This document shows positions 1,582-41,846 of a stretch of 48,018 nt of DNA, piece by piece (within the stretch, counting starts at the first letter, position 1; each line of letters opens with the position of its first letter). The notes beneath the pieces are model-generated. The model saw nothing but the letters and a program-made list of their open reading frames with translations. It was not told where the DNA came from and searched no databases. The translations under genes and the position numbers were made by a program. Source of the DNA: a virus (Duplodnaviria; Caudoviricetes); the IMG/VR virus record IMGVR_UViG_3300037722_000305, positions 1 through 48,018 of that record; one strand, written 5' to 3'.

Positions 1582-1643
1582 GCGAGTAGCCCATTTCATC
1601 CACCCACATGTAGGGGCTACGGGTGCAAATCCCGATACTCGCT
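1582..1643 (+). ncRNA. tRNA-like element (acceptor stem and T-arm, no D-arm)
   Basis: GCGAGTA(1582-88)/TACTCGC(1636-42) 7-bp stem; GCCC/GGGC stem; CGGG-TGCAAAT-CCCG T-arm. Confidence 0.5.
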
Positions 1644-30832: not shown

Positions 30833-31126
30833 TTAGTCGAAACTGAGTTCGTTCTCGATAAATGCCTCAAAGACATTCGACGGTGTATAGGTCTGCGCTA
30901 TCTTGTATTCATTGATTGCAATGCTAGCGAGGGCCACTTCAACGCGATAGCCGTAATCCTTGCCATCGTCTGTTAATTCGTATGCTAAGTACCCGCTATC
31001 CTGCAACATCCCGATAACCGTTTCCCATGTCGCCCAACTGCGCGGGTCAACATAGTAACCATTGCTAACGGTATTCAATGTACGCCGGAGTGCGGATTTC
31101 AAGATTATGTATTCTGCGTATGTCAT
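30833..31126 (-). CDS. Hypothetical protein
   Basis: RBS AAGGA with ATGA coupling. Confidence 0.55.
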   Translation of the reverse strand: MTYAEYIILKSALRRTLNTVSNGYYVDPRSWATWETVIGMLQDSGYLAYELTDDGKDYGYRVEVALASIAINEYKIAQTYTPSNVFEAFIENELSFD

Positions 31127-31350
31127 GGTGTTTCCTTATTCTCTCTATGATATAGAACGACGTATTGTGCCAATTTTGAAATATAACGAATATAACGGTC
31201 CGGGTGACGCTCGTCCTCACTACGCCAAGCAATCCCCCATAATTCGCCAAGCAATCGGAGCGCCTGTTCGCGCTCAAAATCATCCTCAAATGCCAGCACA
31301 GCGACTAGCGTTAAGTATTTACTGCGACTGTATGCGGTCTTCTTTGTCAT
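31123..31350 (-). CDS. Hypothetical protein
   Basis: RBS GAGGA with ATGA coupling. Confidence 0.55.
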   Translation of the reverse strand: MTKKTAYSRSKYLTLVAVLAFEDDFEREQALRLLGELWGIAWRSEDERHPDRYIRYISKLAQYVVLYHRENKETP

Positions 31351-31532
31351 GGTGTTTCCTCGTGGTAAATTTCATTCCCTAATGAGACCCAACCTTTGAG
31401 CCGCCCGTTGCTTAAATCCCAAACAATACCATACTCAACACCCACACTAGATGTTGCTTTATTTATGATGGTGTACACATCCTTGTTTGGAAAATTCTCT
31501 CTGATTGCTTCATAGATATTGAAGTAAATCAT
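31347..31532 (-). CDS. Hypothetical protein
   Basis: ATGA coupling. Confidence 0.5.
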   Translation of the reverse strand: MIYFNIYEAIRENFPNKDVYTIINKATSSVGVEYGIVWDLSNGRLKGWVSLGNEIYHEETP

Positions 31533-36897: not shown

Positions 36898-37178
36898 CCA
36901 TGAACCTGGCATCAAAAAATGATACACTAGCGCAAAATCAACAAAGTGAAGGATTGCGGATAGTGAGCAAGCAGGAAATCGAATGGATACGAACATCTGA
37001 GGCGGCTAAAATATTAGGTGTGAAAACCACGCAAGGCGCTTTACATATTCTACGAGGCGAGGGTAAGGTTAATCCAAAGTGGATTGTTCGACATTGGAAC
37101 ATTGGAACTGATGATATGCCACGATACCTAGTTGCTAAAGAGGATGTTATCGCCCTAGCCGAGCAACGCAAAAGTTAA
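36894..37178 (+). CDS. HTH_17/excisionase-like DNA-binding protein
   Basis: WIRTSEAAKILGV...RYLVAKEDV pattern. Confidence 0.6.
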   Translation: MTMNLASKNDTLAQNQQSEGLRIVSKQEIEWIRTSEAAKILGVKTTQGALHILRGEGKVNPKWIVRHWNIGTDDMPRYLVAKEDVIALAEQRKS

Positions 37179-37189
37179 ATTATTGTAAC

Positions 37190-37218
37190 TTGCGCTTGCG
37201 TAAACAATGGTGTATGAT
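37190..37218 (+). promoter_or_regulatory. Sigma70 promoter driving the tRNA-like RNA cassette
   Basis: TTGCGC-17 bp-TATGAT; predicted TSS about 37225. Confidence 0.65.
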
Positions 37219-37231
37219 AGTTGAAAGTGAA

Positions 37232-37307
37232 GGGGTGTATCTGGTATCGACACCGATTAAGACCTGAGAGGGTAGTCCGAAGCTAGGTTGCAAAGCCTAG
37301 CACTCCA
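37232..37307 (+). ncRNA. tRNA-like RNA resembling the tRNA-like domain of tmRNA (no mRNA-like domain)
   Basis: GGGGTG/CACTCC acceptor with G3:U70 and discriminator A; GG-TA-TCGAC motif; CTAGG-TTGCAAAG-CCTAG T-arm. Confidence 0.55.
37269..37307 (+). repeat. 39-bp direct repeat, copy 1
   Basis: AGGGTAGTCCGAAGCTAGGTTGCAAAGCCTAGCACTCCA; 38/39 identical to 38829-38867. Confidence 0.95.
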
Positions 37308-37337
37308 TTGGCAAATATAACAATAAATGAGGAAAAT

Positions 37338-37649
37338 ATGCAAATCAAACGGCAAGGCGACATTCTACTTATCAAACGTGATGCTCTGCCTGATGGCGAG
37401 GCAACCGCAATCAAACGCGATAACGGGCGCGTCGTTGTGGCATATGGTGAGGTGACAGGTCACGCCCATGCCACGACACAAGCAAGCGTGGAGCAAGTTG
37501 AAATTGATAATATTCGGTGGTTAATTGCGCCGAGTGAATTCGTGATTACACACGAGGAACACGCCCCCATCAGGCTAGATAGCGGCGTGTGGGAAATCTG
37601 CTACCAAGCGGAATACACACCCGAAGAAGTTCGGCGCGTGGTGGACTAG
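37338..37649 (+). CDS. Small His-motif (cupin-like) protein, usual partner of DUF6745-like genes
   Basis: RQGDILL, AYGEVTGHAH, HEEH..I.L..G.W....Q.EY.P; RBS GAGGA before ATG37338. Confidence 0.7.
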   Translation: MQIKRQGDILLIKRDALPDGEATAIKRDNGRVVVAYGEVTGHAHATTQASVEQVEIDNIRWLIAPSEFVITHEEHAPIRLDSGVWEICYQAEYTPEEVRRVVD

Positions 37650-37651
37650 AA

Positions 37652-38824
37652 ATGGATAAGATTAACGCGCTCACACTGGAGCAAGAGCAACAAATGGTAG
37701 CCTTCCGTGAGCAGTGGCGGGCTATTGGGATGGCAACAGGTGCGGCAAACCGCGCTATTGTTACACCAATAATTGAGAATTTCTATGCCGCTATTGGCAA
37801 AGAAAAACCTCATGTTTGGTATTGCCAATCCCCCATCCAGATTCAGCTAATATTAAATCTTCGGGATAATCTTGGGGATAATCTTCGGGATAATCTTGGG
37901 GATAATCTTCGGGATAATCTTGGGGATAATCTTGGGGCTAATCTTGGGGCTAATCTTGGGGATAATCTTCGGGATAATCTTCAGGATAATCTTCGGGATA
38001 ATCTTCGGGATAATCTTCAGGATAATCTTGGGGCTAATCTTCGGGCTAATCTTCGGGCTAATCTTGGGGCTAATCTTCGGGATAATCTTGGGGCTAATCA
38101 ATTGCGGTATTTCCCCACCTACGTATGGGGGGCACTCGATGCTTATTGGGTGGCTTATTATCTATATCCGCAAAAGTATCTCAAAGCGGATATTTACACA
38201 CCGTCAGATTTATCACAATTACGCCAATGGGGTAAATTGGCTGAGAATGCTTTCTGGGTCTATCCGTTTGAAAAGGTCTGCTTCGTATCGGATAGACCCT
38301 CAATCTTCAATATGGAAAATCAGAACGGACGTTATCAGTTGCATTCAGATAATGCCCCCGCCATCGGTTTTTCGGACGGGTACGAACATTACTACTACAA
38401 AGGGGTGCATGTGGAGGAGCAAATAATCATGCAACCCGATACTATCACCGTTGGTCAAATCCAAAACGAACGCAACGCAGAAGTACGGCGCGTGATGCTT
38501 GAGCGGTATCGCCTGAGCGAGCAGGTATCCGGCGAGGTATCCGGCGAAGCATTGTTTATCAAAGATGTCGGGATTGAGCCACAAGCCAGTGACGAGTACG
38601 GCACGGTGTACCTAAAATCATTCAGTGACGATGAAGCATTGTGCTATGTCAAAGTTACATGCCCAAGTACCGCACGTGTGTATTGGTTGCGCGTTGACCC
38701 GTCCGTCTACGACAATCAGGCGAGTATCAATCCACAGGCGGCTGTTGCGAGTACATGGCGACGGCAAGATGGTAGTTTATTTTTCGCAGACTGGCGCGAC
38801 TATGCACCAGTTGAACAATCATAG
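37652..38824 (+). CDS. DUF6745-like protein with an NL[RGQ][DA] tetrapeptide array
   Basis: W..SP, repeat block, WVYPFEKVCFVSDRP, LH....PAI.FSDG...YY.KGV.V, NAEVRRVMLE, V.V.CPST.R.YWLRV.P. Confidence 0.75.
   Translation: MDKINALTLEQEQQMVAFREQWRAIGMATGAANRAIVTPIIENFYAAIGKEKPHVWYCQSPIQIQLILNLRDNLGDNLRDNLGDNLRDNLGDNLGANLGANLGDNLRDNLQDNLRDNLRDNLQDNLGANLRANLRANLGANLRDNLGANQLRYFPTYVWGALDAYWVAYYLYPQKYLKADIYTPSDLSQLRQWGKLAENAFWVYPFEKVCFVSDRPSIFNMENQNGRYQLHSDNAPAIGFSDGYEHYYYKGVHVEEQIIMQPDTITVGQIQNERNAEVRRVMLERYRLSEQVSGEVSGEALFIKDVGIEPQASDEYGTVYLKSFSDDEALCYVKVTCPSTARVYWLRVDPSVYDNQASINPQAAVASTWRRQDGSLFFADWRDYAPVEQS
37856..38098 (+). repeat. 12-bp tandem repeat AATCTT(CG/GG/CA)GG(A/C)T, 20 units
   Basis: Counted directly; encodes NLRD, NLGD, NLGA, NLQD and NLRA. 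Confidence 0.95.
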
Positions 38825-38867
38825 GAGTAGGGTAGCCCGAAGCTAGGTTGCAAAGCCTAGCACTCCA
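38824..38867 (+). repeat. 39-bp direct repeat, copy 2 (38829-38867), with its own GGAGT acceptor strand; tRNA minihelix-like
   Basis: GGAGT(38824-28)/ACTCC(38862-66) plus GCTAGG-TTGCAAAG-CCTAGC. Confidence 0.9.
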
Positions 38868-38895
38868 ATAGCAATCGAATAGTAAGGACGTAATT

Positions 38896-39837
38896 TTGAT
38901 AGACCCGAACATGACAATTTATCCGGTAGTAGCACAAAAGCATATTGTATCAGTGTCAAGTGGAGCGCCAAGTGCGTTACTGCTGATGCTTATCAATCTT
39001 GCGGATACCTACGGCAAAAATAATGTGGTTGGTCTATTTGCTGATACGAACGCCGAGCATCCTGATAATTATCGTTTCCTGTATGACCTGCAACGCGCAG
39101 GATACGATATTGAATTTGTCACGACGGGGAAGTCACCGAACCAACTCCAACTAGAGCAAAATACTATTTTTACAAATTTTCTTGCGCCGTGTACGCGGCA
39201 ATTAAAATTAGAGCCGATACGCGAATTTGTCCAAACGATGCAACGGTGTGGCTATTTGTGTCATATGCACGTTGGGTTCACGGTGGAGGATGCAAAGCCA
39301 ACATCGGATAAACCAAACGGACGCATCACAGATACAAAAGCCTCATGGCTTTCCAATGGTGTAATCCCTCATTTTCACCTTGTGGACGAACAGTACAATC
39401 GGCAACAGGTGATGAGTGAGCTTAAGCAACGCGGCTTCATTGTGCCGATGAGTTACGCGCTTGGTTTTCCAAACGCGAACTGCCTAGCAGAAGGTGGGTG
39501 TGTGAAGGGTGGCAAAGGCTACATGCTGAAAATCCTAACGCACTTCCCCGAATATTACGCTAAACGCGAAGAAACCGAGCGGATTATCCGTATTCGCCAG
39601 TACAAAAAACAGCGCGAAAATGGTGTACGGGTAGCAGATATAAAACTGTACAGCTATCTCAAGAGCCAAGTCCACGCGGGCGGGCGCGTCACATTGAAGC
39701 AATTTCGATTAGAACACGAAGCGGCACAGCGTGATGATATGCAATTGAAATTATTTACGCTAGATGCTGACGGGGACTTATGCGGGGCGGAGTGTGGGGT
39801 ATCCAATCCGGGTATCTGGCAACAACCCGCCGCGTAA
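38896..39837 (+). CDS. PP-loop (PAPS reductase-like, adenine nucleotide alpha-hydrolase) protein
   Basis: IVSVSSGAPSA PP-loop, FADT..EHPDNYRFL, PCTRQLK, GF, YALGFPNANC..GGCVKGG, C-terminal CGAEC. Confidence 0.8.
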   Translation: MIDPNMTIYPVVAQKHIVSVSSGAPSALLLMLINLADTYGKNNVVGLFADTNAEHPDNYRFLYDLQRAGYDIEFVTTGKSPNQLQLEQNTIFTNFLAPCTRQLKLEPIREFVQTMQRCGYLCHMHVGFTVEDAKPTSDKPNGRITDTKASWLSNGVIPHFHLVDEQYNRQQVMSELKQRGFIVPMSYALGFPNANCLAEGGCVKGGKGYMLKILTHFPEYYAKREETERIIRIRQYKKQRENGVRVADIKLYSYLKSQVHAGGRVTLKQFRLEHEAAQRDDMQLKLFTLDADGDLCGAECGVSNPGIWQQPAA

Positions 39838-40797: not shown

Positions 40798-41846
40798 TGA
40801 GTGATTTTATTCCCAACACATTCCAGACACCCAACGCAATTATAGATACACTAATGTTTCTGCTCACAGATAGCGAATTTCGTGTACTTATGTACGCTGT
40901 TCGTCACATACTTGGCTGGACTAAAAAAGCCCCAACCCGTCGAGCCTGTATATCCCTATCAACATTTGAAGATGGATTTTCATATGATACTCCTGATGGA
41001 GAAATTAGTTATCCCGGTTGTGGGTTACGTGTAGCCCCTATTCGCAAAGCTTTAAAGTCACTCCAAAAATATCGCATTTTGAAAGCGATTGGCAAACCTT
41101 CACAGAAAGGGCAAAAATGGGAATTAGCCTTCATGACCGATGATGATGTAGACATTGCAGGTCTTAAATCCCGACAAAAAAATCAACGGGATAAAAATTA
41201 TAAACGGACGCAAAAAGCACGTGACGCATCTCCCAATAATCAAGAGGGGGTACTGTCCAACAGTTACACCATAGGGGGTACTGTCCAACAGTCAGGGGGG
41301 GGTACTGTCCAACAGTCAGGGGGGGGTACTGTCCAACAGTCAGGGGGGGGTACTGTCCAACAGTCAACAACGAAAGACCATAGTAAAGACCATAGTAAAG
41401 ACCAAAGAACTTTAGCGGTTGCACCGCAGACTACTGGCAATACCGAAGTAGACACTTCGGGTAAAAAGGATAAAGAACCCGACAAGCCGGACATCAAAGC
41501 ATTAGCCGATGTGATTGAAATTCATCTCGATATGCACAATGGGCGACAATGGAATATTGCCCATATGTTACAGGGAACGGCTAAGAAGGGCGAATATGCA
41601 GAATACGGGAAGCACTTTACCGATAACCCGATGAGTGGGGATGAGTTTGTTAAATTCATGGCATATTTTAATCGAGAGTGTGACGGATGCTCACTTGCAA
41701 AAGCTGAGACGATAGCTGATTGGGTGGGGAAATTCAGGGCGAACGCACAAAAGCAAGTAGATGATTTCCAGAGACGATTAGCGCATATGCCGAAACCTCT
41801 CAATTACGACAGTCTACCGAAGCGTGATGAGGCAAGACCAGCATGA
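40794..41846 (+). CDS. Phage replication initiator (lambda O-like N-terminal wHTH)
   Basis: PNTFQTPNAIID.LM..L...EFRVL.Y..R...GW...ISLS.F..G; internal iterons; followed by primase-helicase. Confidence 0.8.
   Translation: MMSDFIPNTFQTPNAIIDTLMFLLTDSEFRVLMYAVRHILGWTKKAPTRRACISLSTFEDGFSYDTPDGEISYPGCGLRVAPIRKALKSLQKYRILKAIGKPSQKGQKWELAFMTDDDVDIAGLKSRQKNQRDKNYKRTQKARDASPNNQEGVLSNSYTIGGTVQQSGGGTVQQSGGGTVQQSGGGTVQQSTTKDHSKDHSKDQRTLAVAPQTTGNTEVDTSGKKDKEPDKPDIKALADVIEIHLDMHNGRQWNIAHMLQGTAKKGEYAEYGKHFTDNPMSGDEFVKFMAYFNRECDGCSLAKAETIADWVGKFRANAQKQVDDFQRRLAHMPKPLNYDSLPKRDEARPA
41246..41403 (+). repeat. Putative origin: five iterons GGGGGTACTGTCCAACAGT plus AAAGACCATAGT repeats
   Basis: Copies at 41246, 41274, 41298, 41322 and 41346 (24-bp period for the last four), each with an ACTGT/ACAGT dyad; 12-mer repeat at 41373-41403. 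Confidence 0.85.

Follow-up and report, generated by a model that had tools for sequence, protein, structure and literature searches.

A structured 39-nt direct repeat bounding an RQGD-DUF6745 gene cassette in a Caudoviricetes phage record, and its possible descent from a tmRNA-like gene

One of the closest described counterparts of the RNA element analysed here is the tagless tmRNA of mycobacteriophage DS6A, which the available text of PMC4131195 describes while citing tmRNA inhibition by a similar molecule. Repeat-mediated cassette exchange in phages, via PeSL elements, is reported in the available part of PMC4122927: in T4-like phages, short repeated structured elements bracket accessory genes and act as exchange points at which mini-circles are taken up and lost. 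At tRNA and tmRNA genes, according to the accessible sections of PMC4383910, islands have a whole element at one end, a 3′ fragment at the other and cargo in between, and a circle that carries a gene's 3′ half and recombines into that gene leaves such a shared block. RNase P, as stated in the accessible portion of PMC4919922, cuts phage regulatory RNAs and mRNAs. The C4 antisense RNA of phages P1 and P7, a small structured RNA in an operon leader, is an RNase P substrate.

The window (the whole stretch of DNA analysed, which is a linear virus record of 48,018 bp estimated to be 65% complete) is contained in sediment and soil DNA runs and carries genes for terminase, portal, scaffold, tape-measure, replication-initiator, primase-helicase and SSB proteins. 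The SSB is ~50% identical to the chromosomal SSB of a Chloroflexota genome, and the start of the terminase is 68% identical to a contig from the same Chloroflexota order; on these sequence matches a Chloroflexota host is only a guess, as this was the sole phylum searched. In the rightward early region, a two-gene cassette encoding an RQGD/His-motif protein and a DUF6745 protein sits between an HTH-like gene and a PAPS-reductase-family gene and is bracketed by the repeat (Table 1).

Table 1. Features of the cassette region (positions in the window)
Feature	Position	Strand	Basis or detail
Small HTH-like gene, upstream flank	36900..37178	+	Weak HTH_17 match, E 0.022
Likely sigma70-type promoter TTGCGC-17-TATGAT	37190..37218	+	Pattern search, 1 of 8 matches in the window
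Copy 1, full-length element, 76 nt	37232..37307	+	Folds; comparison with tmRNA ends and DS6A RNA
Repeated 39-nt block in copy 1	37269..37307	+	Last base of GAGA loop to discriminator-like A
RQGD/His-motif protein, 103 aa	37338..37649	+	RQGD, GEVTGHAH and HEEH motifs; PF31129 per Atlas
DUF6745 protein, 390 aa	37652..38824	+	PF20530, E 2e-24, 86 bits against a cut-off of 27
12-nt tandem repeat tract inside DUF6745 gene	37856..38100	+	Codes 4-residue repeats LRDN/LGDN/LGAN
Copy 2, compact 44-nt three-way junction	38824..38867	+	5-bp closing helix, 3-bp hairpin, terminal hairpin
PAPS-reductase-family gene, downstream flank	38911..39837	+	Family match

A preliminary description of this DNA had reported a 38/39 repeat, 1560 bp apart, that encloses the His-motif gene and the DUF6745 gene, and this observation was confirmed. 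The block in copy 1 and its counterpart at 38829-38867 lie in direct orientation and differ at a single position (T at 37276, C at 38836); by a rough estimate, the chance expectation for such a pair in 48 kb is ~2e-12. The limits of the shared block coincide with structural landmarks, running from the distal hairpin loop to the discriminator-like A. An assembly artefact is ruled out as the source of the repeat, since the contigs of run X1, possibly the source sample, break at both copies, as expected for a true 31-nt exact repeat.

Copy 1 is preceded by a likely promoter that ends 13 nt upstream of it and from which transcription would start near 37225, ~7 nt ahead of the element. The identical −35 hexamer and 17-nt spacer are also found at 755, upstream of another gene; a generic promoter scan of the window did not list the site at copy 1. 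Neither this promoter nor the tmRNA-like 5′ half of copy 1 is mentioned in the preliminary description. The element comprises an acceptor-like helix of 6 bp with a G3.U pair and an unpaired A, a 13-nt D-loop-like segment, a 4-bp GAGA hairpin (37262-37273) and a terminal hairpin (37282-37301), and as a whole it folds weakly better than its shuffled versions (z −1.8; 10 of 200 as good). For copy 2, the minimum-energy fold (−20.7 kcal mol−1; z −4.4) was equalled by none of 200 shuffles. This fold contains the pairing of GGAGT with ACTCC that had been proposed for copy 2, with an A-U pair where copy 1 has G.U. The terminal loop is 8 nt; in the preferred fold it is closed further, giving a stem of 8 bp capped by a GCAA tetraloop (−19.0 kcal mol−1, against −15.6 kcal mol−1 for the open loop). 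Of the ‘acceptor plus T-arm stack' described earlier, the stacked helices can fold, but the ‘T-arm' loop has 8 rather than 7 nt and prefers the tetraloop.

Like PeSL elements (PMC4122927, in its available part), the repeat is short, structured and placed around accessory genes. Unlike that family, it occurs in two copies only and not genome-wide, the promoter stands upstream of copy 1 only, and neither copy has a terminator-like site or, inside the repeat, a −10 box at proper spacing. Copy 1 resembles C4 RNA in that it is small, structured and located in the leader of a phage operon, and in that it is a plausible RNase P substrate; unlike C4 RNA, it has no Rfam match, and its unique part has no antisense target longer than 10 nt in the window.

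The earlier label ‘tRNA-like' found no backing from ARAGORN, Rfam or a tRNA model: ARAGORN and RF00005 returned no tRNA in the window, and the Rfam search returned no match to the copies. Against the 7-bp acceptor, 5-bp T-stem and 7-nt T-loop of a tRNA, the element has 6+5 or 5+6 bp and a loop of 8 nt. Alanine-accepting RNAs are recognised by a G3.U pair and a discriminator A, and copy 1 has both (37234 G with 37304 T; A at 37307), together with a stemless D-loop with GG that ends in TCGA-C and is, as in DS6A, 13 nt long. The 5′ motif of copy 1 is common to four of the five tmRNA genes compared and is positioned exactly to pair with the 3′ end of copy 1; its sole occurrence in the window is at 37232, compared with 0.023 occurrences per shuffled genome, for a pattern chosen after the site had been seen. 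Of the P2a helix only the first C-G pair is present, in the DS6A register; CCA is not encoded, and the acceptor is one pair short.

Copy 1 and the DS6A RNA (locus L332; the available text of PMC4131195) measure 76 and 80 nt, respectively, to the discriminator. Both are intergenic and on the sense strand, they are collinear, and they share a GGGG start, the G3.U pair, the 13-nt D-loop-like segment ending in TCGA-C and a 4-bp distal hairpin. Unlike the DS6A RNA, copy 1 has one acceptor pair fewer, no P2a helix and an 8-nt loop, and its 3′ half is repeated, whereas no repeat of the DS6A 3′ half was found in the two DS6A stretches checked. Among 20000 shuffled versions of copy 1, one aligned to the DS6A RNA as well as copy 1 does; for the middle of copy 1 alone, the independent part, 135 of 20000 did; in a genome-wide ranking of 95,884 windows against DS6A, four other places score slightly higher than copy 1 and two equal it. 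RF00023 did not match copy 1 at E≤10 (the same search gave DS6A 43 bits), nor did a DS6A-based covariance model at E≤10, which scored ordinary tRNAs and tmRNA ends at 16-28 bits. As far as such comparisons of sequence and fold can tell, copy 1 would be at most a degenerate relative of the tagless tmRNA, not a member.

Several other kinds of element were considered and rejected. The hammerhead consensus is a core of CUGANGA and GAAA with three stems; on inspection the core was shortened here, stem I was absent, copy 2 lacked the CUGA part and Rfam gave no match. Readings of the repeat as a terminator, a REP or an IS200/IS605 end were set aside by inspection against consensus features, as the repeat lacks a T-run and has no right-end cut site that matches.

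No homologue of the element outside this phage population was found in the searches made, and for that reason its fold has no covariation support. The element, compared by blastn with phage and plasmid records, gave weak short matches only; three relaxed hairpin patterns had no match in IMG/VR, and element patterns were found in 0 of 382 and 0 of 401 Chloroflexota genomes. Model R1 returned 10 of 141 genomes at E≤0.1, which is about chance level, with no convincing alignment. Close relatives, sought in IMG/VR via the neighbouring genes, were not found, and nothing closely related to the cassette region was present in 17 prophage stretches taken from Chloroflexota genomes. The exact hairpin matched two IMG/VR loci (L001 and L002), which were rejected: both are sigma70 promoters with the −35 box in the loop, from unrelated phages. 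These two loci have many repeated promoters of this kind, with an A-run upstream, in a PeSL-like manner. Within the window, positions 1582-1642 (+ strand), after the stop of the ORF at 815-1564, have an acceptor-plus-T-arm-like fold with a 7-bp closing helix and a 7-nt TGCAAAT loop, and short motifs in common with copy 2. This stretch is not counted as a third relative of the repeat: the two-copy model does not find it at E≤10, and its score with R1 arises only from its inclusion among the sequences on which R1 was trained.

It had been proposed that the two copies are punctuation elements at which the bicistronic mRNA is cut free and small RNAs are released, possibly as ligands of both proteins, in a candidate new system. 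The relation between element and protein pair was followed through 260 loci that carry an RQGD homologue and come from collections of viruses, metagenomes and genomes, all at most 51% identical; nine proteins at 64-78% identity exist outside this DNA comparison. The DUF6745 gene is directly downstream in 149 of these loci, directly upstream in 6, elsewhere in 7 and absent in 3, and the remaining 95 end too soon to show the partner. Many viral contigs (L003-L182) stop a few hundred bases past the RQGD gene, since assembly likely breaks in the DUF6745 repeat tract. Blastn found the element in 0 of the 260 loci, a covariance model found no match under E 0.1 in 283 loci, and the tmRNA-type motif was absent upstream of the RQGD homologue in all 259 loci searched; 155 of the 260 have the pair without the RNA element. 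Among 138 cassettes with both flanks (~113 distinct), none had a bracketing repeat comparable to the 39-nt one, and 136 were at chance level. The hairpin that the preliminary description proposed to look for in the flanks of other RQGD/DUF6745 loci is missing from all 260 at this range of identity, and the ligand proposal was not supported. Because the RNA is missing beside every readable distant relative of the two genes, the repeat element is probably confined to this local setting rather than part of a new system of RNA and proteins. Both copies can form stacked helices, and RNase P does cut phage regulatory RNAs and mRNAs (PMC4919922, in its available portion); set against these searches and the bacterial operon context of the pair described below, the punctuation-and-ligand proposal is most improbable.

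The structural model of the RQGD protein is all-beta (pLDDT 93), and the invariance of H42, H44, H72, E74 and H75 suggests that this His/Glu set is a metal site. Foldseek gave no match at E≤0.001 for the RQGD or the DUF6745 model, and comparison of the RQGD model with the PDB gave no clear fold match (best VIA Z 3.1). The two proteins are predicted to bind each other: the complex model scores 0.70 (best of three controls, 0.01), its runs agree in at least 85% of contacts, and the partner pLDDT is at least 83. Of 157 solved complexes, 116 attain the score mark used, as do 2 of 215 mismatched pairs; these counts hold only roughly here because custom alignments were used. The predicted interface joins residues 367-390 of the DUF6745 protein to residues 1-10 and 88-95 of the RQGD protein. 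From these models the two proteins are predicted to act as a pair that does not require the RNA element; most likely the RQGD protein is a small subunit that binds metal and sits on the C-terminus of the DUF6745 protein. Atlas lists a cluster in which an RQGD protein is fused to DUF6745, and tandem tracts similar to that of the phage gene are also present in DUF6745 homologues.

Bacterial neighbours of the pair include the STM4011, STM4013/4014 and STM4015 families (19 to 28 loci each). In actinomycetes and Verrucomicrobium (L196, L240, L254 and others) the pair lies inside an STM4011-STM4015 operon with radical SAM, ATP-grasp-like and hydrolase genes, a location that hints at a biosynthetic or modification role. 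The operon pair and the phage pair have the same adjacent genes and motifs, and fused forms exist; unlike the operon form, the phage pair is in an early region, without STM4011-4015 genes, and bracketed by a repeat seen at no other locus. A literature search for DUF6745 found nothing, and one for RQGD with phage returned unrelated papers only. RQGD-DUF6745 occurs widely, is predicted to form a complex of the two proteins, likely has a metal site and gave no clear fold match; it is worth a study of its own, separate from the RNA element.

Sequencing runs from other studies gave some population data for the two copies. In run X2, a 349-nt contig over 37169-37517 differs from the window only at 37276, where it has C; this makes the block 39/39 identical with copy 2 and keeps the 3-bp hairpin pairing. 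Run X3 has a record of 151 nt (depth 2.3) that agrees with 38824-38901 except at one position; the 73 letters that precede 38824 in it are unrelated, and the part of them that was compared is absent from the window. The break is at the base that opens the closing helix of copy 2, a G that is also the last letter of the DUF6745 stop codon. Unless the X3 record is chimeric, copy 2 can occur together with its 5′ strand and right flank but apart from the end of the DUF6745 gene. The null view stated earlier, that GGAGT is a stop-codon remnant, was weakened by this record, which keeps GGAGT behind unrelated upstream DNA; because the junction with different upstream DNA is precisely where copy 2 begins, this copy probably marks the edge of a module. 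Run X3 has almost no cover inside the cassette, a hole that proves nothing, and runs X5-X7 had nothing at either copy. The depth of run X1 (11.1 on both flanks; 9.2 and 9.65 inside; ~z −1.65) was rejected as evidence. Among the contigs listed, which cannot span a 31-nt exact repeat, there was no joint or empty site.

The explanation that we favour, tentatively and at a little less than an even chance, is that the repeat is the 3′ half of a degenerate tmRNA/tRNA-like RNA gene, duplicated on cassette uptake and now a swap boundary. A small RNA gene descended from a tagless tmRNA-like gene would be transcribed from the promoter at 37190-37218; the RQGD-DUF6745 cassette would have been taken up as a circle by a single crossover through the 3′ half of this gene, the 3′ half would have been duplicated in the process, and the copies would since have bounded the module as cassette swap points, with a later exchange at copy 2 that may be represented by the X3 record. 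Since no integrase was found, general recombination between short structured repeats in the PeSL style (PMC4122927, as far as available) is the simpler route. The closing helix of copy 2 suggests that it may also act as RNA, for instance in processing of the RNase P type or in protecting an end; because this helix is its own, copy 2 may mark or protect an RNA end between the cassette and the next gene. The favoured explanation is weakened in that the exchange comes from one X3 record of depth 2.3, a possible chimera, and by the failure of tmRNA ancestry in every structure-aware test. The phage feature is a lineage-level variant of repeat-bounded accessory cassettes, with a possible tmRNA ancestry. 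If the favoured explanation is true, a decaying tmRNA-like gene has been reused as a recombination boundary, a modest addition to phage mosaic formation. Next to it, an ordinary regulatory GNRA-capped hairpin junction (a stabiliser, processing or antitermination element), duplicated once and only coincidentally like tRNA or tmRNA, is an unlikely alternative. In its favour, the preferred fold has the GCAA tetraloop and not a T-loop, no tRNA, tmRNA or Rfam model scores the element, and chance places in the genome match the DS6A alignment score; against it, the tmRNA-type 5′ motif stands exactly where the 3′ end pairs, and the X3 junction coincides with the start of the closing helix.

That copy 1 is an active tagless tmRNA mimic, cut by RNase P and a 3′ nuclease, given CCA and titrating SmpB or alanyl-tRNA synthetase, so that ribosome rescue would be damped during infection, appears quite unlikely. 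The likely promoter with its short leader, the alanine-type acceptor (G3.U pair, unpaired A) and the collinearity with DS6A of the 13-nt D-loop-like segment ending in TCGA-C and the distal 4-bp hairpin all speak for it, as does the tmRNA inhibition by a similar molecule cited in the available text of PMC4131195; they are opposed by the 6-bp rather than 7-bp acceptor, the 8-nt loop, a P2a that cannot form and the unencoded CCA, and by the lack of a match at E≤10 to RF00023 or to a DS6A model that gives tRNAs and tmRNA ends 16-28 bits. If copy 1 were still an SmpB decoy, a class known from very few phages would be widened and the rules for tmRNA mimics loosened. A broader combination would have a minimal tmRNA-derived RNA serve both as an SmpB decoy that jams host ribosome rescue and as a landing pad, while its 3′ half, folding by itself over 44 nt, would act as an RNase P signal at the distal end of exchangeable gene cassettes; each cassette would then be cut out as its own mRNA and exchanged without an integrase. 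This we regard as a long shot. Very unlikely, too, is an islet placed site-specifically by an integrase in a tRNA-like gene, where copy 1 would be the gene as restored and copy 2 the 3′ fragment that was displaced; the preliminary description had suggested an islet integrated at the 3′ end of a tRNA-like gene. The form agrees with this suggestion, a gene and a 3′ fragment with cargo between them being the island signature; the shared block begins in the loop that stands at the place of the anticodon arm, and anticodon-centred crossover is a common class in the available sections of PMC4383910. The defining integrase was not found: neither the cassette nor the record (estimated 65% complete) has a tyrosine or serine recombinase. 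Unlike the islands, moreover, the unit measures 1.56 kb, below the 2-kb floor used in the same source as far as available, the target lies in a phage and is recognised as neither a tRNA nor a tmRNA gene, and copy 2 has its own 5′ strand.

Several further features were noted in the homologous loci and in the window. One other RQGD-DUF6745 cassette (L173) is surrounded by a 20-nt direct repeat (965 and 2549) that holds the ribosome-binding site; in L029 (6233-8920) the DUF6745 gene is tandemly duplicated with the RQGD start region; and in L023 a tRNA-Gly-like gene lies just upstream of the cassette, with no 3′ fragment found elsewhere. In the window, the 300-nt non-coding stretch at 1564-1863, ahead of the packaging genes, has several hairpins and no noteworthy Rfam match. 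Repeated start-associated sequences with a strong ribosome-binding site stand ahead of several genes (24761, 25105 and 25647 on the + strand; 31110-31170 and 31345-31372 on the − strand). The replication-initiator gene contains 24-nt tandem repeats (41274-41366), which we take to be typical of origin iterons. The family-less protein encoded at 815-1564, upstream of the late region, has a C-x2-C...C-x3-H motif and 10 relatives at 40-72% identity, and is possibly a late regulator.
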